From: an uncultured Acidimicrobiaceae bacterium
Lineage (GTDB): Bacteria > Actinomycetota > Acidimicrobiia > Spongiisociales > ZC4RG35
Length of the DNA: 28,281 nucleotides
Direction: 5' to 3'
Assembly (NCBI GenBank): GCA_964479135.1
Contig: CAYZKF010000001.1
Location: 1 to 28,281 of the forward strand
The notes under the pieces are model-generated. The model ran no database searches. It had not been told where the DNA came from and worked only from the letters and a program-made list of their open reading frames with translations. A program made the translations under genes and the position numbers. Every line of letters begins with the position of its first letter. The stretch's first letter is position 1. Below, in pieces: positions 1-25,310 of the stretch.

Positions 1-7
1 GTTGCGG

Positions 8-712: not shown

Positions 713-775
713 CGTCCGGTCGCTCCGTTACCCATGCCGACGCAACAAGACCCTTGTCGGCGACGATGAGTTTGG

Positions 776-4373: not shown

Positions 4374-4544
4374 TTAAGACTCCTCCCATCGCTCGATTTC
4401 GGGCCGCGGAGCATACAACCGCTCACCTGGGAACAGAGTCCAAATCCCCCCGGTCGGGGCCCCAATCACATGCGGGTCCTGAACAACCACGGCCGGTGAG
4501 GGTACGGGGTAGCCGGGGCGGTCGCAGACGTGTCCCTTCTGTCC

Positions 4545-4571
4545 GGTGGGCGTTTACGGACTCGAACCGCC
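4545..4571 (-). repeat. Displaced copy of the tRNA-Val 3' end (att-like direct repeat)
   Basis: ggtgggcgtttacggactcgaaccgcc matches 5487-5513 (ggtgggcgttgacggactcgaaccgcc) at 26/27 nt in the same orientation. Confidence 0.9.
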
Positions 4572-4599
4572 CCGACCACCCCATCAAGACCCGATCTCC

Positions 4600-4628
4600 G
4601 TGACAACTCCGATCCTTCAGTCGAGAAT
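4600..4628 (+). promoter_or_regulatory. Putative sigma70-type promoter for a leaderless hydrolase transcript
   Basis: GTGACA-N17-GAGAAT, followed 6 nt later by the GTG at 4635. Confidence 0.4.
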
Positions 4629-4634
4629 CTGGGT

Positions 4635-5450
4635 GTGTTGCGTGGGATCGCCGCCGTCGTGGTCGTGCTGGCCATCATCCTCGCCTTACTCTGGATCTCG
4701 CAGCGCCGGATGATCTACTTCCCGACTCAGACAGTGCCGTCAGCAGCGGCTGTCAACCCGGCGATCGAAGAGGTGAGTTACCCGACCGCTGACGGCCTCA
4801 CGTTGAAGGCGTGGTTTGTCCCCGCTTCAGGGGACCCAATCGGTGCGGTCGTGATCTTCAACGGCAACGCAGGGAACCGCGCCCATCGACTCCCACTCGG
4901 CGAGGCTCTCTCCGAGTCGGGTTACTCGGTCTTGCTGGTTGATTACCGCGGGTACGGAGGGAACCCGGGCAACCCCGGTGAGGAGGGGTTGGCTGCCGAC
5001 GCCCGGGCCGCCCTCGCCTATGTGAAATCTCGCCCAGAGGCCGATCCGAGGCGGATCGCATACTTTGGAGAGTCTCTGGGAGCGGGAGTAGCCGTGAGAC
5101 TCGCAGCAGAGGAAACCCCGGCGGCTCTCCTGCTCCGGTCGCCTTTTACTTCCCTGGCCGACGTCGCCTCAGTCCACTACCCATTGGTGCCGGCCTCGTT
5201 GCTCCTCCGTGACCGCTATCCCAATATCGACACCATCGGCGGCATCACAGTCCCGCTCCTTGTCATCGCGGGGTCGGACGACAGAATCGTCCCCCTTGAG
5301 GGCAGCCGACGTCTCTTCGAAGCAGCAAATGAGCCCAAACACCTGGTGGTCATCGATGGCGCTGACCACAACGACCTGGCTCTTCTCGCCGGAGAGGAGA
5401 TGATCGGAGAGATCGTGACATTTCTCCGGGAGGCGTTGGCCAACGACTGA
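4635..5450 (+). CDS. Alpha/beta hydrolase with N-terminal membrane anchor (Bem46/ABHD13-like)
   Basis: FNGNAGN, VDYRGYG, GESLG nucleophile motif, GSDDRIV and ADHND; likely start GTG 4635 (the ORF-track start at 4530 runs through the att repeat). Confidence 0.9.
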   Translation: MLRGIAAVVVVLAIILALLWISQRRMIYFPTQTVPSAAAVNPAIEEVSYPTADGLTLKAWFVPASGDPIGAVVIFNGNAGNRAHRLPLGEALSESGYSVLLVDYRGYGGNPGNPGEEGLAADARAALAYVKSRPEADPRRIAYFGESLGAGVAVRLAAEETPAALLLRSPFTSLADVASVHYPLVPASLLLRDRYPNIDTIGGITVPLLVIAGSDDRIVPLEGSRRLFEAANEPKHLVVIDGADHNDLALLAGEEMIGEIVTFLREALAND

Positions 5451-5484
5451 GCGGAAGTGTCTCCGCCACCTGGAGAGACCGCTC
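5449..5484. terminator. Imperfect hairpin between the convergent hydrolase and tRNA-Val
   Basis: gagcgg...gtctcc-gccacct-ggagagac...ccgctc; no U-tract. Confidence 0.35.
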
Positions 5485-5485
5485 T

Positions 5486-5562
5486 TGGTGGGCGTTGACG
5501 GACTCGAACCGCCGACCCCTGCCTTGTAAGGGCAGTGCTCTAGCCATCTGAGCTAAACGCCC
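5486..5562 (-). tRNA. tRNA-Val (TAC)
   Basis: Reverse complement GGGCGTTTAGCTCAG...CTGCC-CTTACAA-GGCAG...GGTTCGAGTCC...AACGCCCACCA folds as a cloverleaf with encoded CCA. Confidence 0.97.
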
Positions 5563-5633
5563 GCTGGCGCAAATGCTACGAGCTAGCCATTCGTTCAACG
5601 AGTCGGGCCCCGAGTCCGTACCCTGGGCAACTC

Positions 5634-6116
5634 ATGAGTCGTAGCCCTGAAGTCGTGCGACTGGTCTCCGGATTGGTGGGCACCTGGGCCGGTCAGGGAG
5701 AAGGCGGCTATCCCACTATCGAACCCTTCCGCTATCGGGAGATACTCGAGATCACCGGACGCAGCGACCATCCCGCCCTCCACTACCAACAGCAGACCTG
5801 GCGGGAGACACCGGAGGGAGAGGAGCCCTCCCATTGGGAGACCGGCTTCTTGCGGATCTCGAGTGACGGCACGCTGACCGGCTTCAACGCCCAGGGCGGT
5901 CGAGCCGAGGCGATGAACGGGGTGTGGGTCGCCAACGGCGACACCTGGGTGATCACACTCGAAGGGTACGAATACGCCGGCGACGACCGCGTCATCAAGT
6001 CGGTACGCACCCTGACACTCGACTCCGATTTCCTCGGTTATCGAATGTCGATGCTGACAAGCGCTACCATCGACCTCGAGCCCCACCTGAGGGCGAGTCT
6101 GAACCGAGTGTCCTGA
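5634..6116 (+). CDS. Nitrobindin/FABP-like heme-binding beta-barrel (DUF1794 type)
   Basis: [24 protein letters not shown]-terminus, HWETGFLR and C-terminal PHLRASL with the proximal His. Confidence 0.85.
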
Positions 6117-6229
6117 CCGGGGTATCTCCCGCCTCGGGCCTCGTCAACCGTTCTGTGAGTATCTCGGCAGTCCCCCTCTGCCACGACCTGCACGGAACGC
6201 TATTGGGTCTTTGTGCCCATTCAGTCCTC

Positions 6230-6238
6230 TGTGGATAA
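6230..6238. promoter_or_regulatory. Single consensus DnaA box upstream of the sigma gene
   Basis: TGTGGATAA is the reverse complement of TTATCCACA; a TTGACA hexamer lies at 6254-6259. Confidence 0.3.
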
Positions 6239-6312
6239 ACGTCGATAGTGATATTGACAAATGCCATTGGGTGGCCAGTGCTGTTCCTACGCTGGCCGAT
6301 GAGCGCGAGAGT

Positions 6313-7239
6313 ATGAGCAGGTCTATCGAACGAGAAGTGAGCGACGAGGCGATCCGTCAATATTTGGACGGAATCGGCACCTTCGATCTGCTGACCGCCG
6401 AGGACGAAGTCCGACTCGCCAAGGCGATCGAGACCGGCCGCAAGGCCGAGATCTCGCTCGAATCCGAGAAGGATCCCACCAAGCGGCGTCAACTCGGCCA
6501 GTTGGTCAGGGCCGGCGAAGAAGCCCGTCAGACCTTCATCCGCTCCAACCTCCGCCTGGTGGTCTCAATCGCCAAGCGGTACGGCCACGCCAAGCTCCCC
6601 TTCCTCGACCTGGTTCAGGAGGGCAACCTCGGTCTGATCCGTGCCGTCGAAAAGTTCGAATATCGCAAAGGCTTCAAGTTCTCCACCTACGCCACCTGGT
6701 GGATCCGACAGGCGATCACCCGGGCCATCGCCGACAAGTCCCGCACCATCCGGGTCCCGGTCCACATGATGGACACAATCACTCAGATGCAGACCGCCGA
6801 GGCCAACCTGACCAAGCGCGCCGGTCGCAAGCCCACCGACGAGGAGCTCGCCCAGGAGTCGGGCCTCACTGTGGAGAAGATCCGGGAGGCTCGCAAAGTG
6901 GCCCCCGAGCCGGTCTCCATCTTCGAGCCGGTCGGTGAAGACAACGCCATGCTCGGTGACTTCATCGAAGATCTCGAGGCCACCGCGCCTTTCGAGCTGA
7001 TCGCCTCCAAGCTCAACATCGAGAACCTGCGATTCGTCCTCGACCGTCTCAACGAACGGGAGCGGATCATCATCGAGATGCGTTACGGGTTGGGCGACCG
7101 TGAGCCGGCCACCCTCGACGAGGTGGGCCGCCACTTCAACGTCACCCGTGAGCGCATCCGCCAGATCGAGGCCAAAGCGCTGGCCAAGATGCGACACCCG
7201 TCCACTCCCGGAGGTCTCCGGGAGATGGCCGTCGGCTGA
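6313..7239 (+). CDS. RpoD/SigA-family sigma-70 factor lacking region 1.1
   Basis: Region 1.2 ([10 protein letters not shown]), region 2 ([51 protein letters not shown]) and region 4 ([25 protein letters not shown]); ATG at 6313. Confidence 0.95.
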
Positions 7240-7245
7240 GTGTTA

Positions 7246-7560
7246 TCAAGCCGATCTGACCAGCTCCAGGAGGGCACCTCGGTCTGCTTCGACAGGGAGA
7301 TCTGCCTCAGCATGGCGGGGTCTCCCCCGGCCTCGTCGGCGGTGGTAGGCCCGGCCATCCCAAAAGATGACCCCGCCCCATACTCCCCATTCCAGGTTCT
7401 ATTGGAGAGCCAGCTCCAAACATCGGGAGCGCACCGGGCATCGGGCGCAAATGCTCTGCGCCTGAGCCAGGTCGGCCGGGCTCTCCGAGAAGAAGAGCTC
7501 ATGGCTCCCCTCGTCGGTACATCGGCCGTCTTCTTGTAGTTCTCTAAGCAAGTGGTTCAC
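7246..7560 (-). pseudogene. whiB7: WhiB7/WblC-like transcription factor interrupted by an in-frame TAG at codon 54 (7399-7401)
   Basis: GTG 7560 with GAGG RBS. Translation: MNHLLRELQEDGRC...LFF...ICARCPVRSRCLELALQ*NLEWGVWGGVIFWDGRAYHRRRGRGRPRHAE...VRSA*. Four Cys, GVWGG and the RGRPR AT-hook are all in one frame. Confidence 0.88.
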
Positions 7561-7593
7561 GTCGAAACCTCGTTCTTCCGATTCGGAGGCGGC

Positions 7594-7624
7594 AAACAAA
7601 AAGCCGCCGGGTGACTCCGGCGGC
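7594..7624 (-). terminator. Intrinsic terminator (attenuator) in the whiB7 leader
   Basis: Minus strand reads GCCGCCGG-agtcac-CCGGCGGC-TTTTTGTTT, ending ~33 nt before the whiB7 start. Confidence 0.85.
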
Positions 7625-7653
7625 CGCATTTCGGAGAGTTGTTGGTCGTCACA

Positions 7654-7767
7654 TCACATGACGAGAGGCCGCCGTCGGGTCTGATTCATGCCTGCGTCCG
7701 TGCCGGTCGGGGCGGACTGGCAGAATTTGCCCGTGGCATTGGGTCCGGTCTTACGCAGTCTGATCAC
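7654..7767 (-). CDS. Putative leader peptide (uORF) of the whiB7 attenuator
   Basis: GTG 7767 with GAGAGG RBS gives MIRLRKTGPNATGKFCQSAPTGTDAGMNQTRRRPLVM*; an internal ATG at 7689 gives an 11-aa version. It ends ~30 nt before the terminator. Confidence 0.5.
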   Translation of the reverse strand: MIRLRKTGPNATGKFCQSAPTGTDAGMNQTRRRPLVM

Positions 7768-7887
7768 AAAGGCACCCCTCTCTCGACGCCGCCATCATCG
7801 CCGATCCCCCCTCCCTTCGTCAAGGCAATAACTCGATTCAGCCACACCGCTCGGTGGTGGAGGTATCTGAACGCCTAGAGTCGCACC

Positions 7888-8346
7888 GTGATCAAGTTCA
7901 TCTTCCGACTGTTCAAGTATGCCCTGGTGACAGCCGTCGGCTTGGCGGCGGCCGCCAAGATGGTCCTTCAGTCGAGCGCCGGACCGGAGACCGAGGAGAT
8001 CGACATGGTCTCCATCTTCGAAGGCACGGTCCTGGTGTCGAACGCCGACCCTTTCTATGGGGGAAAGATCCTCGGGATGTTCTCCGGAGTCGCCCTCGAC
8101 ATGCGTAAGGCGACACCCTCCCCGACCGGGGTCCACCTCGATCTGGCGGTGGTCTTCGGTGGGGTAACCCTGGTCGTCCCCGAAGGCTGGCGGATTCGCT
8201 CCGAGCTCAACGTGGTCATGGGAGGTTTCGCCGACCAGACCCGGACCACCGCCGACCCCGACGTCCCCACCGTGACCCTGAACGGCATCGTGGTCATGGG
8301 TGGTGTCCAGGCATCGTCGAAGCCGATCGTCGAGGTGGTGACCTGA
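7888..8346 (+). CDS. LiaF/DUF2154-like cell-wall-stress protein
   Basis: N-terminal hydrophobic anchor and Gly-rich beta repeats (MFSGVALDMR, VFGGVTLVVPEGW, VMGGF). Confidence 0.65.
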   Translation: MIKFIFRLFKYALVTAVGLAAAAKMVLQSSAGPETEEIDMVSIFEGTVLVSNADPFYGGKILGMFSGVALDMRKATPSPTGVHLDLAVVFGGVTLVVPEGWRIRSELNVVMGGFADQTRTTADPDVPTVTLNGIVVMGGVQASSKPIVEVVT

Positions 8347-8393
8347 CGACGGCACGAATCGAAGCCAGTCGCCTGATCCCCGGTCGAGGCCCC

Positions 8394-9572
8394 GTGATCG
8401 ACAACGGGGTGGTGGTGATAGAGGGCGGAGAGATCTCCTATGCCGGGGAGTCGAGTGGCGCGCCGGAGACCAACGGCGCCGCGGTCTTCACCACCGACAC
8501 CGTCATGCCCGGGATGTGGGAGTGCCACGGGCACTTCATGGGTACCCGCAGCGCCAACATCGACGAGATCCATGTCACCCGGCCGCAGATGGCGGCGATC
8601 CGGTCGGCCGTCGACGCACGCCGCGTCCTAGACGCCGGCTTCACCTCAGTGAGGGAGGTTGGCGGCCAGGGCAGTTTCCTGGCCAGGGTGATCGATGAGG
8701 GGACCATGGTCGGCCCCTCGATCTACGCCAGCGGGGGCATGCTCTCCATGACCGCCGGTCATGCCGACATCCACGACATGGACCCGGCCACAGCCCGGCA
8801 CTCGATGGCCCGCCAGTGGGGTGAGGACGGGGTGGTCGACGGACCGAACCAAGCGAGAGCCGGGGTGCGACGGATGCTTCGGCTCGGTGCTCGGGTGATC
8901 AAGATCCACGCCTCAGGTGGGGTGCTCAGCCAGCTCGACGACCCGCAGTTGCCCCAGTTCTCCAAACCCGAGCTGGAGGCGATCATCGATGAGGCATCGC
9001 GCATGGAACGAGTGGTCGCCGCCCACTGCCACGGCAAGCGGGGGATGATGGCCGCCATCGAGGCTGGCGTGAAGACCATCGAACACGGGACATTCATGGA
9101 CGAGGAAGTCGCCGACGCCATGAAGGAACGGGATGTGATCCTGGTCCCGACCCGCTGGATCGTGGACTTCCTGATGCGAGAGGGCGAGAAACGGGGAATG
9201 CCCGAGTACGCCAAGCAGAAGCTCTTCGACACCGCCGCGCAACACGCCAAGGGAATCACCCTCGCCGTGGAAAAGGGCGTCCGAATCGCCATGGGCACCG
9301 ACATCTTCGGGGCCGGGTTGTGGGGGCGGAATGCCGAGGAGTTGCCACTGCTCGTCGACTGTGGGATGGGCCCCCTCCAAGCTATCGAGGCGGCGACGGC
9401 CAACGGCCCAGACACCCTCGGGCCCCAGGCCCCCAACGCCGGGCAACTGAAAGCCGGTATGGACGCCGACGTGATCTGTGTCAACGGGGACCCTACGACC
9501 GACGTCTCGATCCTCGCCGACCCTGACAACATCACCCACGTCTGGAAGAGGGGCGAGCTGGCCAAGGGGTGA
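8394..9572 (+). CDS. Metal-dependent amidohydrolase (prolidase/Xaa-Pro dipeptidase-like subgroup)
   Basis: PGMWECHGH (HxH), GFTSVRE, IKIHASGG, AAHCHG, TIEHG, MGTD and GQLKAGMDADV. Confidence 0.9.
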   Translation: MIDNGVVVIEGGEISYAGESSGAPETNGAAVFTTDTVMPGMWECHGHFMGTRSANIDEIHVTRPQMAAIRSAVDARRVLDAGFTSVREVGGQGSFLARVIDEGTMVGPSIYASGGMLSMTAGHADIHDMDPATARHSMARQWGEDGVVDGPNQARAGVRRMLRLGARVIKIHASGGVLSQLDDPQLPQFSKPELEAIIDEASRMERVVAAHCHGKRGMMAAIEAGVKTIEHGTFMDEEVADAMKERDVILVPTRWIVDFLMREGEKRGMPEYAKQKLFDTAAQHAKGITLAVEKGVRIAMGTDIFGAGLWGRNAEELPLLVDCGMGPLQAIEAATANGPDTLGPQAPNAGQLKAGMDADVICVNGDPTTDVSILADPDNITHVWKRGELAKG

Positions 9573-9586
9573 ACTGGTGCGCCTCA

Positions 9587-9684
9587 TCGTGTGCACAACT
9601 AGACCATCACGGGTGTTCTGTGCACACGCAAGACCTCCTCGTGTGCACAACTAGACCGTCACGGGTGTTCTGTGCACACGCAAG
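9587..9684. repeat. Tandem pair of 46-bp palindromic units (period 52 bp), REP-like
   Basis: tcgtgtgcacaactagacc[a/g]tcacgggtgttctgtgcacacgcaag at 9587-9632 and 9639-9684; each unit has a 10-bp stem cgtgtgcaca/tgtgcacacg. Confidence 0.9.
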
Positions 9685-9733
9685 GAGCTCCCGTCGCCCG
9701 GACTACGTCGTGCGATCACCCCCGAAGCGGGGG

Positions 9734-10369
9734 CTAGACGAGTCGACGCTTCGAGGCCCAACGGGCGAGCTCGTGGCGGTTGGACAACTGGAGCTTGCGC
9801 AACACCGAGGAGACATGGGTCTCCACCGTCTTGATCGAGATGTCGAGCTTGCGGGCAACCTGTTTATAGGCGTAACCCCGGGCGATGAGACGCAAGACGT
9901 CTTTCTCCCGCGAGGTCAACTGGTCGAGCTCGGGATCCTCGTCACTGGGTAGGGCGCCGGCAAACGCGTCGAGGACGAACCCGGCGAGACGGGGTGAGAA
10001 CACTGCGTCTCCGGCATGGACCCGACGTACCGCATCGGCCAGATCGGGGGGCTCGATGGTCTTGGTGACATAACCTCGGGCTCCCGCCCGGATCATGGCG
10101 ATGACGTCTTCGGCCTGATCGGACACCGACAGGGCGAGAAACTTGACCTCGGGATTGGTCCCAGCGACCGACTCGATCACGGCGATCCCCCCACCATCGG
10201 GCATATGGACATCGACCAGGGCGACCTCGGGCCGGAGCCCTCTGATCTCGGCGATGGCGGTGTCGACGTCCTGAGCCGACCCGACGATGGTGAACTCCTC
10301 GGCGAGCTCCGCCTTGACCCCGGAGAGGAAGATCCGATGGTCGTCGACCAGATAGACCTTGATGCTCAT
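9734..10369 (-). CDS. NarL/LuxR-family response regulator
   Basis: LVDDH, LVDVHMP, GARGYVTK and LTSREKDVL..IARGY.YKQVA..L.IS.KTVETHVS. Confidence 0.96.
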   Translation of the reverse strand: MSIKVYLVDDHRIFLSGVKAELAEEFTIVGSAQDVDTAIAEIRGLRPEVALVDVHMPDGGGIAVIESVAGTNPEVKFLALSVSDQAEDVIAMIRAGARGYVTKTIEPPDLADAVRRVHAGDAVFSPRLAGFVLDAFAGALPSDEDPELDQLTSREKDVLRLIARGYAYKQVARKLDISIKTVETHVSSVLRKLQLSNRHELARWASKRRLV

Positions 10370-11529
10370 GGGATCAGCGGCATGGTCAGATGCACCTCGG
10401 TCCCGTCGCCGTTCTCACTGGCGATGGAGGCGGCACCACCAGCCTTCTCCACCCGCCCCATGATCGATGCGGTGATCCCCCGGCGGTCGGCGCCCACCGA
10501 TGCCGGGTCGAATCCCTTCCCCTGATCGGTGACGAATACCGCCAACCCATCCTCTCCCGCCTCGAAGTACAGCGAGATCTTCCCCGACCCCGAATGTTTG
10601 GCGGCGTTGACCATCGCCTCGGTGGCCGCCCCGATCAGTGCAGCGGTTGCCTCGTCAATCGGATGGTCTCCCACCGTCACCACTTCGACTGGAACCTGAT
10701 GGTCCTCTTCGACCCGCAATGCCGCCCTCTTCAGCGCGGTGGAGACCAGGTCCATGCCGTCCAACGGAGCGGTCCCATACAGCCAGTCGCGAAGCTCGGT
10801 CTCTTGATGTCTGGCCAGCATGGTCATCTTGGCCGGGTCGTCAGAACGCTGGATCAGGGCGAGAGTCTGGAGCACCGAGTCGTGGAGGTGGGCGGCGACC
10901 TCGGCCCGCTCCTCCTGGCGGATCCTCTCTCCCCGCTCACGGGCAAGATCGTGGAGCAACCGGCGCACCAGGGGTCCAAAGGCGACGAGCACCCCCAGAG
11001 CGGTCAGGGTGACGGCGATGAACACCGAGGCAACCTCGAACACCGGGCCCACCGCCGAGGCGAAGATGGTGAGACCAGCGACCAGGAGCCCGACCCCCAA
11101 TATCACCCGGGCCCGTCCCGGGCGATCCACCCCGGGATCGATGAGGGCGGCCAGGGGCCGGGGTGTGCTCCGATCGGTGAGGGCAGCGGCCCCGAAGGCG
11201 AGAGTGGCCATGGTCAACACCACCACCGGCGACGGCCACCAACCCAGCACTCCGACCAGAGACATGAAACCGACAAAGGCCAACGCCAGCCCGGCGCGCT
11301 GTGAGGTCTCCACCCGGCGCGGCTCTCGATCCTCCACCCGGTCATAGGAGTAGAGCCACAACCCGGCGTAGACCAGCCCTCCCAGTCCCCACACCGTGGC
11401 CAGGGTGAGAAACGCCGCCCTCACATAAGGCGCTCCGACACCGAGTGCGTCGGCGGCACCTCCGGCCACCCCGGCGATCATCCGGTCGGTGCTCCTCCGG
11501 CTCAAGTCGAACGATGGGGGTGATGTCAC
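10366..11529 (-). CDS. PspC-domain membrane sensor histidine kinase (HisKA_3 type)
   Basis: N-terminal RRSTDRMIAGVAGG (PspC), AHLHDSVLQTL H-box, EAMVNAAKHS and DQGKGFD; likely GTG start at 11529. Confidence 0.92.
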   Translation of the reverse strand: MTSPPSFDLSRRSTDRMIAGVAGGAADALGVGAPYVRAAFLTLATVWGLGGLVYAGLWLYSYDRVEDREPRRVETSQRAGLALAFVGFMSLVGVLGWWPSPVVVLTMATLAFGAAALTDRSTPRPLAALIDPGVDRPGRARVILGVGLLVAGLTIFASAVGPVFEVASVFIAVTLTALGVLVAFGPLVRRLLHDLARERGERIRQEERAEVAAHLHDSVLQTLALIQRSDDPAKMTMLARHQETELRDWLYGTAPLDGMDLVSTALKRAALRVEEDHQVPVEVVTVGDHPIDEATAALIGAATEAMVNAAKHSGSGKISLYFEAGEDGLAVFVTDQGKGFDPASVGADRRGITASIMGRVEKAGGAASIASENGDGTEVHLTMPLIP

Positions 11530-11564
11530 CCGGCAATCATGCCCCAGAGGAGCCCCGGGCTCAA

Positions 11565-11613
11565 TCGGGGAAGGCCCCGACTCGTATCGGGGGCCGGTCA
11601 GGGACATCCCCGA
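11565..11613. promoter_or_regulatory. Phased 16-bp palindromes between the divergent PspC genes (putative response-regulator sites)
   Basis: TCGGGG-aagg-CCCCGA (11565-11580), half-site TCGGGG (11587) and TCAGGG-acat-CCCCGA (11598-11613). Confidence 0.6.
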
Positions 11614-11640
11614 TGGCAAAAGGCCCGGCAATGCGGCTCA

Positions 11641-12870: not shown

Positions 12871-12881
12871 GAGACGAGATC

Positions 12882-13103
12882 ATGAAACTGCACGAGTTCG
12901 ACACCCTCTCGTTCATCGCCGGTCTGCTCACCACCGCATTCGGGTTGCTCTTCCTGATCCCGGCAGCGACCGACGATCTGATCGGCATGGCCACACGTTT
13001 CGCCGTCTGGATCTGGCCGGTCCTCTTCCTGGTCATCGGGGTCGCCATCCTGGTCCCTACCCTCATCCGAAAGGACGACCGCGACCAGGATCACAAGACC
13101 TGA
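12882..13103 (+). CDS. Small 2-TM membrane protein of the PspC cluster (73 aa)
   Basis: AGGAG RBS and ATG 12882; MKLHEFDTLSFIAGLL...WIWPVLFLVIGVAILV. Confidence 0.8.
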   Translation: MKLHEFDTLSFIAGLLTTAFGLLFLIPAATDDLIGMATRFAVWIWPVLFLVIGVAILVPTLIRKDDRDQDHKT

Positions 13104-13876: not shown

Positions 13877-13962
13877 GCCCAGAGGATAGAGCCGACGCCG
13901 ATGGCTCCCGGTATGTTGAGCTAACGTCCCAGGTCACCACGCCAACTTTCACTACATCGCCG

Positions 13963-15660: not shown

Positions 15661-15964
15661 CTCGTGAACCAAAATCGGAACCAACAAGTCCCGCAGCCTT
15701 CCACATCTCTTCTACCAGGCACAACTGTGCTTGGTGCGGCCGGTCCGCCTGACGGCGGGCAGGAGGTTCCCCTGCTCACCAGATGACGATGAGTCCTTCC
15801 TAGTGGTCTGTCGGTCAAATAGGGCGCGCGGAGCTCCGAGCCATCAAGGTCATCTGGCAAGGAGAAGCGCGCAGTCGCACCCGGGGAGGTGCGGCGAGCA
15901 CTTCGACGCAGCCAGGGGCTTTGAGGGCCGGAGACACGCCGTCAGTATTTTGGGCGACGGGCCA

Positions 15965-17401: not shown

Positions 17402-17477
17402 GGGCCAACCGTATCAGCGCCCGACTCCTCACCGCTGCATGCCTACAGCATCCGCCTGTTCTTGACGAATAACTCTC

Positions 17478-19049
17478 ATGCCCCGACCGCGTGGGTCAGC
17501 CCACGGCCTGCCCGCTTCCATCCTGGCTGGAACGGGAGTCGCCCTCCTCACCCTCGGCATCGCCGCCGCAGGGGTCTCGATCGAATACCAGGCCGGAATC
17601 CGCCAATCCAAGAGCCGGCTCGACGGCATCGGCCAGACCATGGTCGAGGGACTGCACCGGGAGCTCCGTGACATCAGCTTCTTCCTCCTTGCCGTTGACC
17701 GACTCCAGCCCGACGATCGCACGCAGATCCAAGTCCGGCTCGACCTGCTCGCGGAGTATCCCCATGTGGCCGCGGTCGGGCACGCTCCCGGAGACCGGAG
17801 CCCGGTCGTCTGGTCGACCCAGGTGTTATCGACTGCGATCACACCCATCGGACCGGACATGCTCGAAGAAGCCAACCTGGGCCTCGACTCGCTGATCATG
17901 TATCGCACCATCGGGTCGCACCTGATGATGACCCATCCCTATCCAGTCCAAGGGGACCGTGTCTGGGATCTGGTCCTGGTTGACATGGCACGAGCAGTCG
18001 ACGATGTGGTCCCTGCCACCTTCGCCCGGGACCTGATCTGGGACTTGCGCCCGGTTCCGGGACTCGACGCGACTCGGGCTGCTCCCGACCGTCACCGCGA
18101 GTACCTGATCCTCGACGGGTCCACCGCATGGGTCCTCGAACTGGGCTGGACCGAACAAGCCAAGACTCGCATGGGGCTGGGGATCGATTGGTGGCTGATC
18201 GGAGCCGGAGTCCTCGTCGCCCTGATCACCGGGACCCTTTCCGCCCGATGGATGCGACGGAAGTACCTCGATGCCGATGTTCGGTCCAACGAGGACCTGG
18301 TCGAGCAGAAGGATCTGCTCCTCCTCGCCATTTCACACCAGATGCGCACTCCTCTGACCGGGATCATCGGGTTTCTCAGACTCGCTCTCGACGAGCCCGA
18401 AGACCAGATGTCGATCACCCAGAGACGGGAGCTCGCTCGGATGGCTTTGGGCGAAGCCGAACTGGTCGCTGAGATCGTCGAGGACCTCCTGCTCAGCACC
18501 CGCATCGACTACCAACAACTGGTGGTAGTCGAACGCACTGTGGCGGTCGAAGGTTTGCTCGCCGACATCTTCCGGGCCACGGCTCGAGACTCCGAGACAC
18601 TCAGATTCGTCGACCCGACAACCGAGACGATGATCTTCGCCGACCCGCTCCGGGTGCGACAACTGTTCAGGAACATCCTCAGCGGTGGACGCGACGAAGG
18701 CTCCACCCATTGGGACGTGACTGTCTCGACCGACGACGAGACTGTCGAGGTGACCCTGATTCCCGATGTGATCGTGGCCCCCCGATCGGATCGACTCATA
18801 CCCGACCACGTGGCCCTGCCCCAGGGCCTATCTGCGGTGCAACCGAGACTGGGGATCGCCAGGAAGCTCTGTCTGCTGATGAACGGCAGCCTCGAGGTCG
18901 TCCAGGGGAGACGGCGCACCGAGATCCGGGTGTCACTGCCGGCGGCGAAGACCGGGACTCCACCACGCAGCTCGGCGAGTCGGCCGAGAGAGCCCAGGCC
19001 GCACCACCGCGGCAAAGGTCGCACCTCCCACCAGGAGACCAACTCCTAG
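17478..19049 (+). CDS. Membrane sensor histidine-kinase-like protein with degenerate ATPase domain
   Basis: Two TMs flanking an extracytoplasmic domain; H-box ISHQMRTPLTGI; N, G1 and G2 boxes eroded. Confidence 0.7.
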   Translation: MPRPRGSAHGLPASILAGTGVALLTLGIAAAGVSIEYQAGIRQSKSRLDGIGQTMVEGLHRELRDISFFLLAVDRLQPDDRTQIQVRLDLLAEYPHVAAVGHAPGDRSPVVWSTQVLSTAITPIGPDMLEEANLGLDSLIMYRTIGSHLMMTHPYPVQGDRVWDLVLVDMARAVDDVVPATFARDLIWDLRPVPGLDATRAAPDRHREYLILDGSTAWVLELGWTEQAKTRMGLGIDWWLIGAGVLVALITGTLSARWMRRKYLDADVRSNEDLVEQKDLLLLAISHQMRTPLTGIIGFLRLALDEPEDQMSITQRRELARMALGEAELVAEIVEDLLLSTRIDYQQLVVVERTVAVEGLLADIFRATARDSETLRFVDPTTETMIFADPLRVRQLFRNILSGGRDEGSTHWDVTVSTDDETVEVTLIPDVIVAPRSDRLIPDHVALPQGLSAVQPRLGIARKLCLLMNGSLEVVQGRRRTEIRVSLPAAKTGTPPRSSASRPREPRPHHRGKGRTSHQETNS

Positions 19050-19143
19050 GGGGGCGGCACCCAGGGGGCCTCGGTCCCTCCCACTGCTCCGCGTATTTGA
19101 CACCTCGGAATCCACCGGGCGGTCCCGCGACGTTCATACACTG

Positions 19144-19500
19144 ATGGTTAGGACAGTGACGACTGAGTCTCCTCCCCGGCCGGACCAGGCCCTGGAGCCC
19201 GAGGATCTCCAGCGTTTCTACTACGCCTGTGCTCACGAGCGACGGTCACCGATGACGATGCGGATGATCGACGCCGCCTCATACGGCTGGATCCACCTCT
19301 TCGTCCAAACCCAGCATGTCTCCGACCGGTCGAACCCTGAGTGGGCCAGCCCGGGAACGGCGGACCCGCGCAAGCTCGAGGGCTTCTTCGAACGGGTGGC
19401 AATCAGGCTGAGGGAGACCCCCGGACACGACTATGCCCGGCGCTTGGAAGCCCATTACAAGGAGATCGCCGACTCGATAGAGGTCTGGCCGAGCCTCTAG
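19144..19500 (+). CDS. Hypothetical protein (118 aa; possible GTG start at 19156)
   Basis: Protein-like composition, fills the gap between same-strand genes; no family recognised. Confidence 0.6.
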   Translation: MVRTVTTESPPRPDQALEPEDLQRFYYACAHERRSPMTMRMIDAASYGWIHLFVQTQHVSDRSNPEWASPGTADPRKLEGFFERVAIRLRETPGHDYARRLEAHYKEIADSIEVWPSL

Positions 19501-19546
19501 TGCTCCGGCTCGTAGGGCAGCCCGCAACGATCAGGAGCCGGATAGG

Positions 19547-20176
19547 GTGTCTCCTGTGTGGGCCACAAACCCGCCAATCGTGGTCGACTGCGAGAGGATC
19601 GTCCAGGGGTTCCTCGCCCAACCGGTCAACGCAGTTACCAGCCTCAGCTTCGTGATCGCCGGGTCTTTGATCGCCTGGCAACGACCCGACCGCCGCCTGT
19701 TCGGCCTTCTGGTCGGGCTGGTCGGAACCGGGTCCTTTCTGTTCCACGGGCCGATGCCCTTCCAGTCGGAGTGGCTCCACGACGTCACCATCGGATGGGT
19801 CTTGGCTGCGGTCGCCCTCGACCGTAAACGGCAGTGGCTGTATCTGGTGATCCCGATCGTGGCGGTGACCTTCGCCGTCTGGCCATCTGGCGCCGATCCG
19901 ATCATGGTCTTGATGGCCGCGGTGGTGGTCGCCGGAGAGGCGACCAGGGGACTCCGCCAACGCGTAGTCGCCGCACCCGCTTCGGTGGGCGTGCTCGTCC
20001 TGGGTGCCGGGATCGGGACCATGTCACGAACCGGGTGGCCCTGGTGTGACCCGGACTCGTTGATCCAGGGGCACGCGGTGTGGCATCTCCTCGCCGCGAC
20101 CGCCCTCTTCGTGTGGGGCACCTACTCGGGGAAAGAACAGGCCCGAGCTAACGCCGGCCTCGATTCGACCCGGTGA
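19547..20176 (+). CDS. Ceramidase-like CREST-superfamily membrane hydrolase
   Basis: DCE..N.VTSL, GSFLFHG (SxxxH) and GHAVWH (HxxxH) metal motifs; multiple TMs. Confidence 0.75.
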   Translation: MSPVWATNPPIVVDCERIVQGFLAQPVNAVTSLSFVIAGSLIAWQRPDRRLFGLLVGLVGTGSFLFHGPMPFQSEWLHDVTIGWVLAAVALDRKRQWLYLVIPIVAVTFAVWPSGADPIMVLMAAVVVAGEATRGLRQRVVAAPASVGVLVLGAGIGTMSRTGWPWCDPDSLIQGHAVWHLLAATALFVWGTYSGKEQARANAGLDSTR

Positions 20177-20181
20177 GCGGT

Positions 20182-21675
20182 TCACGGGTCCAGCGACTCC
20201 TCGCAAGTGGTGTCGAGCCCGCTCAGACCCAGCGCCTCCCGGGCGGCGATCGGATCGCGCATCACGAATTGGGCGTCGGCCCGGATCTGTTCGATGTCGA
20301 AGTAGCGGATGCTCGAGTTGGGGGCCGGTATCTCGTACGCCGATCGGGCGATGCTCAGGGCGGTGAAGTGCTCGGTGTCCAGATTGGGGAGGAGGTCCAC
20401 GAAGTCAACCAGGGCGTCCTGGGGGATGTCGGTGAGGACGTTTGTTTTGATGGCGTCGGAGACACGTCCCAAGTTGACGAGGAGGCTGAGAGGGTTGGTT
20501 TGCTCGACCAGGGCAGCCAACACGCACCGCTGCCGTTGCATTCGGGCAAACTCGTGCGACTGTGACCTGATCCGGGTGTAGGCGAGGGCTTGGTACCCAT
20601 CGAGATGCTGGGTCCCCTCCTCGATGACAACCGTCGTCCTGGTGGCGCCCCAATGGTCGTCGGCGGTGTCGTAGTTACGGTCGACGATCCTCCTCGGCAC
20701 CTCGATGGTGACGCCACCGAGAGCATCGATGACATCGATGAACCCCCGCACCGTGATCAGCGCGTAATAGTGGATGGGGATGCCGAAGAGCTCACCAAGT
20801 GCCGCTTTGACCGCGTTCTCTCCCGGTGTCCCCGGTCCCGGGTAGCGGTGAGGCGCGACGTCCTCGGCTCTGCGGTAGACATGCCCGATCCAGTCCCAAT
20901 CGTCGAGTGTTCTCGGGACTCCCATCCCCTCGGGCATCTCGAAGTTGGAGAGGAACCGGGGCACCGAGAGCACCGCCACGTCGTAAGGCGGTTGCGGGTT
21001 GATGCTGACCACGATCATCACATCGGTCCGGTGCCCCAGATAACGCCGGTCGGTGGGATCCAGATCCTCCTGGTTGGGCCGCATGTCCGAGCCGAGCATC
21101 GCGATGTTGAGACGTTCCACCCCGTCCCAGATCCGGGGAGGCTGGGTGGTCGTGGTGGTCGGCGGCCTGCTCGTCGATGTCGGTCTGGTGACCGCGGGGC
21201 CGGAGGTCGTGGTGGTGTCAGCGGCCACCGGCGGGGTCGGAGCGAACACCGTCTCGATCAGGTCGTATTGGGTCCAGGCAAGGTACCCACCTACCAGGTG
21301 GGGGCCGACGAGAATGAGGCCGGCCAAGGCCATCACCCCGCCTGCACGTAAACCTGTGGGACGGACCGACGCCGCCCGGTAGGCGCCGCCCACGGCGAGG
21401 GTCCGGTAGACGAGGATGGCGACGTTGAACACCATCAGCAGGACCAATGCGTCGAGGCTGACCCATACCTTGACCGTCTCCCACCGAAACCGGGCTACGA
21501 CCACCAACAGAGCGGCGGCCAACAACAGGTCGCACGCGAAGAACCGGTATGCCGCCCTAGTCCTTCCCGTGTAGACCTGGCCCCATCCGGGAAGGATCGA
21601 TGACAACAGCGCTGCAAGAGGAGCGCTGTTCCCGGCGTCGCCGGCTGTCGGCCTGGTTGAGGGCACCTCGGTCAC
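20182..21675 (-). CDS. LCP (LytR-CpsA-Psr) family glycopolymer transferase with N-terminal TMs
   Basis: LNIAMLGSD, RTDVMIVV, VLSVPR, ALAYTRIR and FARMQRQ; likely GTG start at 21675. Confidence 0.9.
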   Translation of the reverse strand: MTEVPSTRPTAGDAGNSAPLAALLSSILPGWGQVYTGRTRAAYRFFACDLLLAAALLVVVARFRWETVKVWVSLDALVLLMVFNVAILVYRTLAVGGAYRAASVRPTGLRAGGVMALAGLILVGPHLVGGYLAWTQYDLIETVFAPTPPVAADTTTTSGPAVTRPTSTSRPPTTTTTQPPRIWDGVERLNIAMLGSDMRPNQEDLDPTDRRYLGHRTDVMIVVSINPQPPYDVAVLSVPRFLSNFEMPEGMGVPRTLDDWDWIGHVYRRAEDVAPHRYPGPGTPGENAVKAALGELFGIPIHYYALITVRGFIDVIDALGGVTIEVPRRIVDRNYDTADDHWGATRTTVVIEEGTQHLDGYQALAYTRIRSQSHEFARMQRQRCVLAALVEQTNPLSLLVNLGRVSDAIKTNVLTDIPQDALVDFVDLLPNLDTEHFTALSIARSAYEIPAPNSSIRYFDIEQIRADAQFVMRDPIAAREALGLSGLDTTCEESLDP

Positions 21676-21763
21676 AAGCGTACGACGTCCCCGGGGAAGC
21701 CAAAGGTTCCGGGGGGATTCTGAGCGTCTCGATCGATACGCAACCCGGGTAGGGTCGCCTCCA

Positions 21764-22018
21764 ATGATCGAGGTCAACCGATCATCCCAACACGCAGATC
21801 ACCACACCGCTTCGGGAGCGTCGGTGCGTCTGACCACGCGAACCTGGAGCGTCGGTGTGACGAGGAAGAGGTGGGGACTGGGGATCGGCTACACCGGTCC
21901 GAAGTGGGTGGCGGTTGACGGTGTCCGGGTGCCGGTACGCGACTACCTCCTGCTGGTGCAACTGACCGCGGTGGCAGTGGCAATCATGACCAGATTGGCG
22001 AGGAGGTTCAGACCGTGA
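21764..22018 (+). CDS. Hypothetical protein coupled to the YtfJ-like gene
   Basis: C-terminal hydrophobic helix; stop overlaps the next GTG. Confidence 0.55.
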   Translation: MIEVNRSSQHADHHTASGASVRLTTRTWSVGVTRKRWGLGIGYTGPKWVAVDGVRVPVRDYLLLVQLTAVAVAIMTRLARRFRP

Positions 22019-22410
22019 CGATTCCCGGAGCCGAAGGGTTCGACATCAACAAGTCCCTCGACGAAACCGGATCCCGCATACGCGAGGGGTTGGACAGTCT
22101 GATGGGACCGGCGTCACCATCCATGGTGTTCTCCGAGCCCCAGGTCATAGGAGACGACCTGGTGTTCACCGCGTCGTCCTGGGAGCGCGGTGGCGGTTTC
22201 GGTCTAGGGGCTGGTACCGGCGGTGACCCCACCGGTGGCGGCACCGGTGGAGGTGGTGGAGCCGGCGGCGGGTCACAGGGTCGGCCGGTGGCTGTGATTC
22301 GCGTAGGACCGGGAGGAATCGAGGTCCGTCCGGTACTCGACCTCACCAAGCTCGCGGTGACCGTGCTGCTGGCCTTGGTCGGCGTGTGGAAGGCATTGAG
22401 AGCCAAGTAG
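22015..22410 (+). CDS. YtfJ/GerW-like Gly-rich protein
   Basis: VFSEP..GD, GGGFGLGAG, GGGGGAGGG and PVAVI.V...GIEVRPV. Confidence 0.75.
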   Translation: MTIPGAEGFDINKSLDETGSRIREGLDSLMGPASPSMVFSEPQVIGDDLVFTASSWERGGGFGLGAGTGGDPTGGGTGGGGGAGGGSQGRPVAVIRVGPGGIEVRPVLDLTKLAVTVLLALVGVWKALRAK

Positions 22411-22445
22411 TCGCCGCTGCGCCGGGGCGAGACTGAGCCGTTGGA

Positions 22446-22913
22446 TCAGTCAGCGGGATCGGTGACGTCGGCGACTCGCGCTTCGAGGACCCGAGCCAGA
22501 TCTGCCCCGTGGATTGTTATCGAGACACCGTGGTCCCCTCCCCCTATCGAGACCGGGGTATCCACTGTCCGAGTGTCGGCGATCACCGGCCAGGGCCGGG
22601 TGGACCCGAGCGGGGTGATGGTGCCTCGCGCATAGCCGGTGACGTCCTGGGCGCTCACGGCGTCGGGCATCGACAGTCGGCTCACCCCGAGCAAACGTCT
22701 CAGCTTCACCCAGGAGATGACCCGGTCACCGGGGACCAGAACGAACAGGAAATCGTCGTCCCCCCTCCGCACCACCATCGTCTTGATCACTGCCGAAGGG
22801 GCCACCCCCCGCAACTCGGCTGCCTCCTCGAGCGAGGCAACCGGCCGGTGGCGAATCACCCGAAATTCGACGCCGTCAAGCCGCGAGTCGGAGAGTGCGG
22901 GTGTTGATTCCAC
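22446..22913 (-). CDS. YbaK/EbsC-family aminoacyl-tRNA deacylase
   Basis: EEAAE.RG, VIKTMVV, VLVPGD, TGY.RGTITPLG and IGGG..G.S; start uncertain (GTG 22913 assumed). Confidence 0.88.
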   Translation of the reverse strand: MESTPALSDSRLDGVEFRVIRHRPVASLEEAAELRGVAPSAVIKTMVVRRGDDDFLFVLVPGDRVISWVKLRRLLGVSRLSMPDAVSAQDVTGYARGTITPLGSTRPWPVIADTRTVDTPVSIGGGDHGVSITIHGADLARVLEARVADVTDPAD

Positions 22914-23003
22914 TCCCACCGACACTAACCATCGCCCGCGGAACACCATCCGTGACCTGGGCCTCGATGCATTTGGCCGGGCCGTCGCAGGTATTCTCGC
23001 CAA

Positions 23004-23975
23004 GTGACTGACCACGGCGGACCCATAGACTGGCTACTGGACCCCGAGAATTCCGACCCGTCGATCCGTTGGCAGGTGATGCGCGACCTGCTCGACGCCC
23101 CAGAGTCGGAGTGGGCGGCGGAGCGGCGAATGGTGGAGACCGAGGGCTGGGGTGCTCGTCTCCTCGACTTCGAAGACGAAGATGGTCAATGGGCCGGGGG
23201 CGCATACTTCCCGGCTGATTACGTCTGGGGGGGCGACGAGCCCGGTCAGCCCTGGACGGCCACCACCCATTCTCTCTCCCTGCTGCGGGAGTTCGGGCTC
23301 GACCCGACTTCGGACCGGGTCAGGCGCGCCATGGAGCTCATCGGCGCCAATGCACGGTGGGAACACGATGGCCAGCCGTACTGGGAGGGTGAAGTCGAGC
23401 CATGCGTCAACGGCATCACCGTGGCCAACGGCACCTATTTCGGCGTTGACCTGTCCCCCATCGTCGAGCGGCTGTTGGGCGAGCGCCTCGGGGACGGCGG
23501 CTGGAACTGCGAGGCTGAGAACGGCTCGGTTCGCTCGTCCTTTGCCACCACGATCAACGTTCTCGAAGGGCTCTTGGAGTACGAGCGGGCCACCAGGGGC
23601 ACCCCCCGGTCGCGGGAGGCCCGCCTCTCCGGCGAGGAGTACCTTCTCGAGCGCAAGCTGTTCCGGCGACTGGGCACCGGCGAGCCGGCCGACCAGCGGT
23701 TCCTCGACCTCCTGAACCCGAGTCGATGGCGCTACCACGTGCTCCGGGCCCTGGACTATTTCCGTGCCTCCGCTGCCTTTACTGGCGATGCCCCGGATCC
23801 CCGGCTCGGCGAGGCGATAGAACATCTTCGTTCCAGGCGCACCGAGGATGGCAGATGGCCCCTCGACTGGAGCCCCACCGGCCGGGTGTGGTTTGAGGTC
23901 GACGACGGAAAGGACCAGCCCTCGCGCTGGGTGACCCTCCGGGCGATGCGGGTGCTCAGATGGTGGGAGGGATAG
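23004..23975 (+). CDS. Conserved hypothetical protein with prenyltransferase/squalene-cyclase-like alpha-barrel repeats
   Basis: WLLD..DPSIRW, DGQWAGG, DGGWNCE and EDGRWP repeats (QW-like). Confidence 0.65.
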   Translation: MTDHGGPIDWLLDPENSDPSIRWQVMRDLLDAPESEWAAERRMVETEGWGARLLDFEDEDGQWAGGAYFPADYVWGGDEPGQPWTATTHSLSLLREFGLDPTSDRVRRAMELIGANARWEHDGQPYWEGEVEPCVNGITVANGTYFGVDLSPIVERLLGERLGDGGWNCEAENGSVRSSFATTINVLEGLLEYERATRGTPRSREARLSGEEYLLERKLFRRLGTGEPADQRFLDLLNPSRWRYHVLRALDYFRASAAFTGDAPDPRLGEAIEHLRSRRTEDGRWPLDWSPTGRVWFEVDDGKDQPSRWVTLRAMRVLRWWEG

Positions 23976-23985
23976 TCCACCCCGG

Positions 23986-24008
23986 GCTGCTGACCGGCAG
24001 CTTCGTTT
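23986..24008 (+). terminator. Short hairpin plus T-rich tail after the 23004 gene, abutting the att-like remnant
   Basis: gctgc-tgaccg-gcagc-ttcgttt. Confidence 0.4.
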
Positions 24009-24038
24009 GTGGACCCCACAGGATGTGAACCTGCAAGC
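24007..24038 (-). repeat. Decayed copy of the tRNA(CAT) 3' end (att-like direct repeat)
   Basis: ttgtggaccccacaggatgtgaacctgcaagc versus tggtgggcccggcaggatttgaacctgcaacc (25233-25264): 26/32 identical, same orientation. Confidence 0.75.
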
Positions 24039-24218
24039 ATTACCTCCGGTATCAGATGCCCAAAGGGATTCATCGCGACTCTGATGCAGCTATCTCACCC
24101 CGCAGTCGACCGCCACTCCCGAGTAGGCTTGTAGGGCAGATCCGGCTGAAACAACGTACAAAACGTACGAGCCGTGCACCTACGACCGGGGGCATGAGTG
24201 TGTCGGGAGGAGGTAGCA

Positions 24219-24296
24219 ATGAGTCGAATGATCTGGTTCGTTCTCGGGATCATCGGACTGATCGTGGTGATCATCTGGGTTTTGAATCGCATATAG
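24219..24296 (+). CDS. 25-aa single-TM small protein (not in the ORF track)
   Basis: GGAGGAGG RBS 6 nt before ATG; MSRMIWFVLGIIGLIVVIIWVLNRI*. Confidence 0.75.
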   Translation: MSRMIWFVLGIIGLIVVIIWVLNRI

Positions 24297-24513
24297 CCGC
24301 GCCCCTCTCGTTCAAGTAGCGGAGCCTCGTCCACTCGCCGTTGGATCGTCGACGATCAGATCGGTCTGGCTCCGTAGGTCGTTGGGGCGGTGGTCCGTGA
24401 GGGTCGGAGCTACCGAGAGGTCGAGGTTCCACACCGGGACCGACGGGCGGCTCACCCCCGTACCATCAGGCCATGAGCGGGTCGGTAGAGGTCAGGCTCC
24501 GGCATCAACTGAC

Positions 24514-24542
24514 TTGCACCTACCTGGGTCCACCGGCATTGT
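24514..24542 (+). promoter_or_regulatory. Putative promoter for a leaderless HIT transcript
   Basis: TTGCAC-N17-CATTGT, followed 6 nt later by ATG 24549; no RBS. Confidence 0.45.
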
Positions 24543-24548
24543 TGCGCC

Positions 24549-24998
24549 ATGACACAGAGCACGACGTCGGCGGCGCAAGAGTGCATCTTCTGCGCCATTG
24601 TGGAGCGAGAGGCCGAGGCCAGTGTCGTGTTCGAGGACGAGACCGTTGTGGTCTTCATGGACCTGAACCCCGTAACACCCGGCCATCTTCTCGTCGTGCC
24701 TCGCGAGCACGTGGTGGGCCTCGAAGACCTCGATGGAGCCACTGGCGCCCACGTTTGGTCGGTCGGTCACAACATGTCGCGAGCCTTGCGACGCTCCCGC
24801 ATGCGCTGCGAGGGGATCAACGTGTTCCTCTGTGACGGCGAAGCCGCCTTTCAGACGGTTTTCCACTTCCACCTTCACGTCATCCCTCGCTACACAGGAG
24901 ACGGCTGGACCATCATTCCCGAGTCGACCGAACGCGAGAGGTCGCTCCTCGACAGCGACGCGCAAGCGATCAGAGACGCCATCGCGTCGACGGACTGA
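24549..24998 (+). CDS. HIT-family nucleotide hydrolase
   Basis: CIFCAI, MDLNP..PGHLLVVPREH and VFHFHLHVIPR histidine triad. Confidence 0.95.
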   Translation: MTQSTTSAAQECIFCAIVEREAEASVVFEDETVVVFMDLNPVTPGHLLVVPREHVVGLEDLDGATGAHVWSVGHNMSRALRRSRMRCEGINVFLCDGEAAFQTVFHFHLHVIPRYTGDGWTIIPESTERERSLLDSDAQAIRDAIASTD

Positions 24999-25232
24999 AT
25001 GGTGACTTCCGCTTATGCCGCGAACCGGTCGATCCGCCGACCCGAATAGGCACTTACCGAGAGCCCTGTGACGTATGTTTTCTTACATCGCATCGGTTAG
25101 ATGCAACTGTGTGCGCTGAGCACGACCCGTCCATTTCTGGCCGTCTCCCCAGGTGGGTGAAAACGAGACACAAGAGCCGGAGCCAATGTGGGACAGACCT
25201 ACCGGACTTTCACAATGTCTCGCGACATCACA

Positions 25233-25310
25233 TGGTGGGCCCGGCAGGATTTGAACCTGCAACCGACGGATTATGAGTCCGCTGCTCTGACCAGGTTGAG
25301 CTACGGGCCC
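25233..25310 (-). tRNA. tRNA with CAT anticodon, probably tRNA-Ile2 (lysidine)
   Basis: Cloverleaf GGGCCCG...GCGGA-CTCATAA-TCCGT...GGTTCAAATCC...CGGGCCCACCA. G1-C72 pair and no GGG/CCC anticodon stem, so not initiator; C4-G69 and C5-G68 match TilS determinants described in E. coli. Confidence 0.9.

Follow-up and report, generated by a model that had tools for sequence, protein, structure and literature searches.

The stretch of DNA examined here, referred to as the window, is 28,281 nucleotides (nt) long and constitutes the whole of contig C1 (CAYZKF010000001.1) of a fragmented metagenome-assembled genome of an uncultured Acidimicrobiaceae bacterium (GCA_964479135.1), which comprises 1.68 Mb in 219 contigs and is 63% complete with a GC content of 65%. 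Judged by the sigma-factor gene, the nearest named match is an Acidimicrobiia MAG (85% identity). It contains two tRNA genes approximately 20 kb apart, tRNA-Val(TAC) and a tRNA with a CAT anticodon, each followed by a segment of about 1 kb, here called islet 1 and islet 2, that carries an accessory gene and is closed by a displaced copy of the 3' end of the tRNA. Both segments are probably the fossil remains of tyrosine-integrase islands, that is, of genomic islands or integrative mobilizable elements (IMEs). The repeats and the accessory nature of the cargo are observed in the window itself, and integrase-bearing and integrase-remnant states are observed at both tRNAs in relatives. The two tRNAs are recurrent, family-wide attachment sites of one tyrosine-integrase family and serve as hot spots for islands.

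In this analysis, tRNA genes were called by ARAGORN, protein domains were assigned by Pfam, and integrases were sought with the PF00589 profile and by tblastn with three integrases of the family. The comparison covered 11 other species of the genus (congeners, 81-97% complete), 61 genomes of the family that were surveyed for the 3' end of tRNA-Val, with nine relative cases looked at in detail, and 12 loci carrying orthologs of the islet 1 hydrolase, one of which (G038) belongs to an unpublished genome on which no conclusion is built.

The two islets in the window

The features that define the islets are as follows.

5486-5562, minus strand: intact tRNA-Val(TAC) (ARAGORN), the attachment-site gene of islet 1
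4545-4571, minus strand: displaced copy of the tRNA-Val 3' end (T arm and 3' strand of the acceptor), 26/27 identical, the far boundary of islet 1
4635-5450, plus strand: cargo of islet 1, an intact membrane-anchored alpha/beta hydrolase of 271 amino acids (aa) with a GESLG nucleophile elbow and a GTG start (Pfam Hydrolase_4, Abhydrolase_1)
4600-4628, plus strand: putative promoter-like GTGACA-N17-GAGAAT before the hydrolase GTG (consensus scan, 9/12)
25233-25310, minus strand: tRNA with a CAT anticodon (Met by ARAGORN; Ile2 possible), the attachment-site gene of islet 2
24009-24036, minus strand: decayed displaced copy of the CAT-tRNA 3' end, 24/28 identical, the far boundary of islet 2
24549-24998, plus strand: cargo of islet 2, a HIT-family nucleotide hydrolase or transferase of 149 aa with an intact histidine triad (Pfam HIT)
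24220-24297, plus strand: putative 25-codon hydrophobic open reading frame (ORF) inside islet 2, read from the sequence

The displaced copies are real and exhibit the geometry of an attachment-site duplication, in that each lies on the strand of its tRNA, downstream of it, and comprises its 3' part only. The Val copy is located 942 bp from its source segment (5487-5513) and the CAT-tRNA copy 1226 bp from its own (25235-25262). Each copy is the sole match in the 1.68-Mb assembly at five or fewer mismatches, where shuffled probes gave zero to one matches per genome, and the best chance match in the flanks reached 19 of 27-28 positions for the shuffled probes of both copies. No homology to the 5' half of a tRNA was found at either fragment. 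The tRNA-Val gene shares 96-99% identity with the congener tRNA-Val(TAC) genes, which adjoin the same sigma-factor gene, and the CAT-tRNA is nearly identical to its congener counterparts, which carry arrays of 3' fragments. The Val copy retains just 27 nt, whereas the 40-63-nt copies of relatives extend to the anticodon arm.

The cargo of both islets is accessory. In islet 1, the hydrolase gene is the sole gene, preceded by 63 nt and trailed by 35 nt, with a GC content at third codon positions (GC3) of 0.74 compared with about 0.80 in its neighbours. No ortholog was found in the congeners (0/11), and orthologs at 48-63% identity occur elsewhere in the family and order, in other genera. None of these 12 loci has a tRNA-Val beside the gene (a tRNA-Thr lies nearby at one), and no tRNA was found near 26 metagenome relatives of the hydrolase (at most 66% identity). 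The metagenome scan with the hydrolase found neither a second strain with or without islet 1 nor a near-identical hydrolase unit. Within the genus, the HIT protein of islet 2 is found in one relative only (G005, 52% identity), elsewhere in that genome; the remaining congeners hold just a HIT paralog of about 30% identity, and the islet 2 type is patchy in other genera, with no tRNA or integrase near its homologs. Apart from the HIT gene, islet 2 contains approximately 0.67 kb of non-coding DNA and the 25-codon ORF, which has 47% GC and a GC3 of 0.42 against a genome GC3 near 0.8 and is either very foreign or non-coding. No sequence common to the two islets was seen beyond the tRNA-end repeats.

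The first-pass annotation, prepared from the sequence of the window, had described two parallel, integrase-free, promoter-gene cassettes, and part of this description stands. The displaced 3'-end copies about 1 kb downstream of both tRNAs are above chance, the plus-strand cargo genes converge on the tRNAs, no integrase is detected in the window by PF00589 or tblastn, and both segments represent foreign DNA inserted at tRNA attachment sites, with accessory cargo and non-syntenic 3' flanks. The notion of a one-gene cassette fits the Val segment and fails for the CAT-tRNA segment, with its additional ORF and non-coding DNA. The proposed leaderless layout, with -35 and -10 elements placed before the start codon, is divided in the same way. 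The Val site meets the threshold of the consensus scan (two sites found compared with 0.2 expected) and stops 6 nt before the hydrolase GTG, which may indicate a leaderless start; the scan of the site proposed at 24514-24549 before the HIT gene gave 0 sites. The shared "design" of the two islets is weak, because only the Val site passes the scan and the orientation of the cargo relative to the tRNA differs among the islets of relatives.

None of the other eight real tRNAs in the 63%-complete assembly has a 3'-end copy (0/8), and a search of the DNA past the two scars (window 1-4540 and 19000-24000) for tRNA fragments in a further stage of decay gave nothing above the shuffled-probe null. The solitary, trans-acting integrase suggested by the first-pass annotation has no matching candidate in the assembled 1.68 Mb, where PF00589 matches are confined to contigs C199 and C77, whose genes are unrelated or partial.

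The tRNA-Val site in related genomes

Across the 61 family genomes, the 3' end of tRNA-Val is frequently present twice on one contig. In the nine cases, the copies are 40-63 nt long, mostly cover the tRNA from its anticodon arm up to or past the 3' end, and bracket 1.1-12.3 kb. The largest segment (G045, 12.3 kb) contains an intact tyrosine integrase abutting tRNA-Val, a TrwC relaxase, and a transposase; that of G057 (8.1 kb) contains an intact integrase with ApeA/HEPN genes; and that of G022 (3.2 kb) holds two integrase pseudogene pieces, one abutting tRNA-Val, plus an AbiEii gene. No integrase trace was found in G017 (6.5 kb) or in the islets of G084, G051, G056, G080, and G055 (1.1-3.6 kb, one or two genes each), and several of the integrase-free Val segments have perfect repeats of 42-54 nt. 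No cargo is common to any two islets from different genomes, the shared sequence being limited to the tRNA, the arm described below, and integrase remnants; the comparison of cargo suggested by the first-pass annotation reveals variation across the clade.

Just inside the element, an arm of approximately 110 nt is conserved beside nine Val fragments in seven genomes, with or without an integrase, in a comparison that covered the Val site. A shared arm, for which the first-pass annotation suggested looking, is found next to Val fragments of relatives and is absent at the Val fragment of the window. In the nine loci (L136-L144), a GC-rich, hairpin-like CGCGAG..CGACGC block, a T run, and then CCCAGGT.GCCGAAA stand before each fragment. 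G055 and G080 have a different arm in common. In another genome (G066:C8:1568-2248), ten copies of a tRNA-Val 3' 26-mer occur on one strand with a period of about 73 nt, representing either tandem tRNA-Val genes or a fragment array.

The CAT-tRNA site in related genomes

In G002, an intact integrase directly adjoins a perfect 48-nt CAT-tRNA fragment, and a 1.6-kb islet with a truncated integrase follows. In G005, G001, and G080, CAT-tRNA fragments lie just 36-131 bp apart and are pure deletion scars. The integrases of the Val and CAT-tRNA sites are 41-48% identical and form one family. Accretion at tRNA ends, which the first-pass annotation had proposed, is seen in relatives as tandem accretion at these very tRNAs. 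In the family, the two tRNAs display a size series that begins with 12.3 kb (integrase, relaxase) and 8.1 kb (integrase), continues with 3.2 and 1.6 kb (remnants), and descends to segments of 0.9-3.6 kb with no integrase trace and to fragment arrays spaced 36-131 bp apart.

Several other arrangements occur at this site. In G064 (L093, G064:C63:3500-13500), a 6.25-kb segment without integrase, bounded by the CAT-tRNA and by a 47-nt duplicate of the 3' part of this tRNA, is filled by a single gene for a 1704-aa STAND NTPase (BTAD, kinase, nSTAND1 NTPase, WD40). In G056 (L092, G056:C3:134500-149500), a 27-nt CAT-tRNA 3' fragment and the tRNA bracket a full heme-synthesis operon of 10.25 kb (GlutR, PBG deaminase, ALAD, aminotransferase, URO-D, ferrochelatase, amine oxidase), with an integrase-like gene located 5' of the tRNA. 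Because this fragment brackets a housekeeping operon, a tRNA fragment is not always a mark of foreign DNA. The apparent second CAT-tRNA copy in G046 was rejected as a fragment, being another tRNA gene (tRNA-Arg).

Flanking regions of the two tRNAs

The regions adjoining the islets contain the following features.

8-4373, minus strand: accessory operon of a rifampicin-phosphotransferase-like dikinase (PPDK_N and PEP-utilizers mobile domain), two unknown proteins, and a PAP2 phosphatase (Pfam)
21778-24008, no strand assigned: distal variable segment beyond the CAT-tRNA fragment, with a 131-aa ORF, a YbaK-like editing domain, and a 323-aa protein without a Pfam family, non-syntenic with congeners
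25160-25214, minus strand: 55-nt stretch just 3' of the CAT-tRNA, 85% identical to the sequence immediately 3' of two tRNA-Ala genes that lie at contig ends in congener G007

The dikinase operon sits beyond the Val fragment and reaches the end of the contig. In 24 family genomes no counterpart of the dikinase was found, its homologs being confined to other families; in one of these (G026), the dikinase keeps synteny with the 300-aa protein and PAP2, and the operon therefore looks acquired as a whole. Five congeners retain the gene order 5' of tRNA-Val (sigma factor, small gene, amidohydrolase) and differ on its 3' side, where three species have otsA/otsB, one of them with CrcB in addition, and G009 has other genes. 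At the CAT-tRNA, the distance from the tRNA to the LytR gene is about 0.87 kb in G006, where the window holds 3.4 kb of other genes. Each scar thus lies within a larger variable region, as tandem accretion would predict, and since the DNA past each scar is accessory too, both tRNAs are probably hot spots of tandem island pile-up.

The 5' side of tRNA-Val is variable as well, because the interval between the tRNA and the sigma-factor gene differs in content among the species compared: it measures 50-180 bp in four congeners, holds a glyoxalase gene in G009, and in the species of the window alone contains a gene for a THAP4/nitrobindin-like heme-binding protein (5634-6116). At the CAT-tRNA, a luciferase-like monooxygenase gene (25354-26244) lies between the tRNA and the next conserved gene; it is present in five congeners and missing at that position in G001 and G006. 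The 323-aa protein (23004-23975) stops 33 nt short of the CAT-tRNA fragment and has several paralogs per genome in the genus, frequently at contig ends. The G007 counterparts of the 55-nt stretch (L128 4801-4855 and L129 1-55) lie directly 3' of tRNA-Ala(ggc) and tRNA-Ala(cgc), and because both contigs stop exactly at it, the stretch may be the end of a repeated element; its predicted RNA fold is no better than that of shuffles.

Origin of the islets

In the process that the comparison points to, tRNA-Val(TAC) and the CAT-anticodon tRNA of an uncultured Acidimicrobiia lineage would each have received islands in their 3' part, so that element DNA rebuilt the tRNA and the old 3' end was pushed downstream. 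Such rebuilding, with the downstream shift of the old 3' end, is established for tRNA-targeting integrases. Within a small genome (about 2 Mb), deletions may then have stripped the integrase and all non-selected DNA, which would leave at each site one useful, self-expressed gene and a shortened, mutated attachment-site scar, and successive islands would have piled up in tandem at both tRNAs.

The islets are read as decay products because the series leads from the full element via remnants to bare scars at identical attachment sites. Within this series, we infer that the islets of the window lie near the decayed end, since their repeats are the shortest and most mutated, the Val arm is absent, and no integrase trace is left. 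The first-pass annotation had named an origin as deletion remnants of large prophages or ICEs (integrative and conjugative elements) as an outcome that would speak against its cassettes. In relatives, decay is evident at both tRNAs; for the window, we infer from those relatives, rather than from anything observed in the islets, both the decay origin and the passage of the islets through integrase-bearing and remnant states.

Several observations weigh against a decay origin. No integrase remnants or other element genes were detected in islets 1 and 2 by tblastn with the three family integrases, and 7/10 of the Val-site segments surveyed lack an integrase trace, as members of a trans-mobilised element class would also do. 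Islet 1 is very tight, an outcome that random deletion would seldom yield, though a small genome could produce it by purging DNA without function. In addition, a matching integrase elsewhere in the genome may be hidden from a 63%-complete assembly. The tightness of the Val islet and the large integrase-free share leave room for trans-mobilisation. On this explanation, the islets would be functional, integrase-less cassettes, similar to the cis-mobilizable elements (CIMEs) of other bacteria, that are excised and inserted by a tyrosine integrase encoded elsewhere or on an incoming island, with tRNA ends serving as collection sites. Integrase-free segments of 1-4 kb bounded by attachment sites are indeed common at tRNA-Val in the family, several with perfect 42-54-nt repeats, the conserved arm stands beside the fragment in integrase-free and integrase-bearing segments alike, matching integrases are present in the genus, and the mobilisation of CIMEs by accretion is documented in other bacteria (PMC5704250). 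The window itself argues otherwise: its repeats are short (27-28 nt compared with 40-63 nt) and contain 1 and 4 mismatches, its Val islet is without the arm, cargo is never shared by two islets, the closest hydrolase in metagenomes reaches 66% identity at most, and the assembled genome has no matching integrase, so that active cassettes are an unlikely description of these islets. In a broader form of the idea, the 1-4-kb integrase-less modules of one or two genes, each with a tRNA, a 40-63-nt copy, and an arm of about 110 nt, would be a living trans-mobilised class that a shared tyrosine-integrase family exchanges at both tRNAs, with the islets of the window as old members; this is considered quite unlikely.

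Explanations without a site-specific integrase fare no better. The tRNA-end copies could be pseudo-tRNAs left from duplicated tRNA genes or the outcome of homologous or illegitimate recombination with foreign DNA, anchored in the conserved tRNA, with which the integrase-free state of the window islets, the heme-synthesis operon of about 10 kb bracketed in G056 by a 27-nt fragment and the tRNA, and the mere additional tRNA gene in G046 would all be compatible. It is rather improbable, given that the copies comprise the 3' part only and are always downstream on the same strand, which is the duplication pattern of an integrase, that 5'-half homology is missing at both window fragments, and that the counterparts of both sites in relatives hold integrases or their remnants. 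Chance is an extremely improbable source of the repeats and the shared layout together. With two cases only, one promoter-like site failing the scan, and convergent orientation in 2/2 expected one time in four, it may explain the shared layout, but not the repeats, as matches of 26/27 and 24/28 exceed the shuffled maximum of 19 and the pattern recurs across the family.

Decay of integrase islands consequently remains the preferred account, and the proposal of a new, integron-like class of minimal promoter-gene cassettes gives way before the integrase-bearing islands and remnants present at both tRNAs in relatives. The observation is real and its kind is known, while the integron-like novelty is not supported. 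No new mechanism is opened, because integrase-less segments bounded by attachment sites and their accretion have already been described (PMC5704250, PMC3146451). Two modestly interesting results remain, namely the family-wide tRNA hot spots and the conserved element arm that accompanies even integrase-free segments. The picture suggested is one in which uncultured soil and water Actinomycetota with small genomes acquire accessory genes singly, as an island arriving at a tRNA hot spot shrinks to a useful gene and a scar. Two hot spots and one integrase family shape the variable region across a whole bacterial family.

Comparison with known systems

The islets share features with several described systems. 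Islands targeted to tRNA genes, including the integrative elements of actinomycetes, are flanked on one end by an intact tRNA and on the opposite end by a duplicate of the 3' part of that tRNA, as reflected in the sublocation classes of Williams and in the Islander/TIGER definition. The window corresponds to this definition in its intact tRNAs, 3' direct repeats, and foreign content, and the relatives do so in their 40-63-nt copies, which span the anticodon arm to the 3' end, and in the tyrosine integrase that abuts the tRNA in full-size elements. Unlike such islands, both window segments lack the defining integrase gene inside the segment.

Integron gene cassettes are likewise single genes gathered beside a fixed recombination site, and they are mostly promoterless. 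In contrast, at least the islet 1 hydrolase seems, from the pattern preceding it, to carry its own promoter. No IntI, attI, or attC occurs here; the integron reading was rejected, since the window has no integrase gene and direct repeats of tRNA 3' ends, rather than attC sites, form the boundaries.

The islands at the ssrA gene of Dehalococcoides follow a single small RNA gene in arrays. A direct repeat of the 3' end of this gene, with a conserved motif beside it, closes each island, and 15 of them without an integration module have been discussed as possible CIMEs or as fixed in the chromosome (PMC3146451). They differ from the islets in their target and enzyme, a transfer-messenger RNA (tmRNA) gene and a serine recombinase there compared with two tRNAs and tyrosine integrases here, and in being larger and carrying rdhA genes.

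CIMEs are decayed ICEs or IMEs that retain attL and attR and accrete with incoming elements (PMC5704250). Those related to ICESt1 in Streptococcus thermophilus resemble the islets in being bounded by the 3' end of the target gene and a direct repeat, in having no integration or transfer genes, and in a presumed origin by decay and a tandem position with other islands at one site. In the window, however, the repeats are shortened and mutated and the Val arm is absent, making functional attL and attR sites doubtful, and the islets, with 0.9-1.2 kb and one gene, are much smaller and belong to an uncultured member of Acidimicrobiia. With these differences, decayed islands of the CIME kind with tandem accretion are the closest known counterpart of the two islets.

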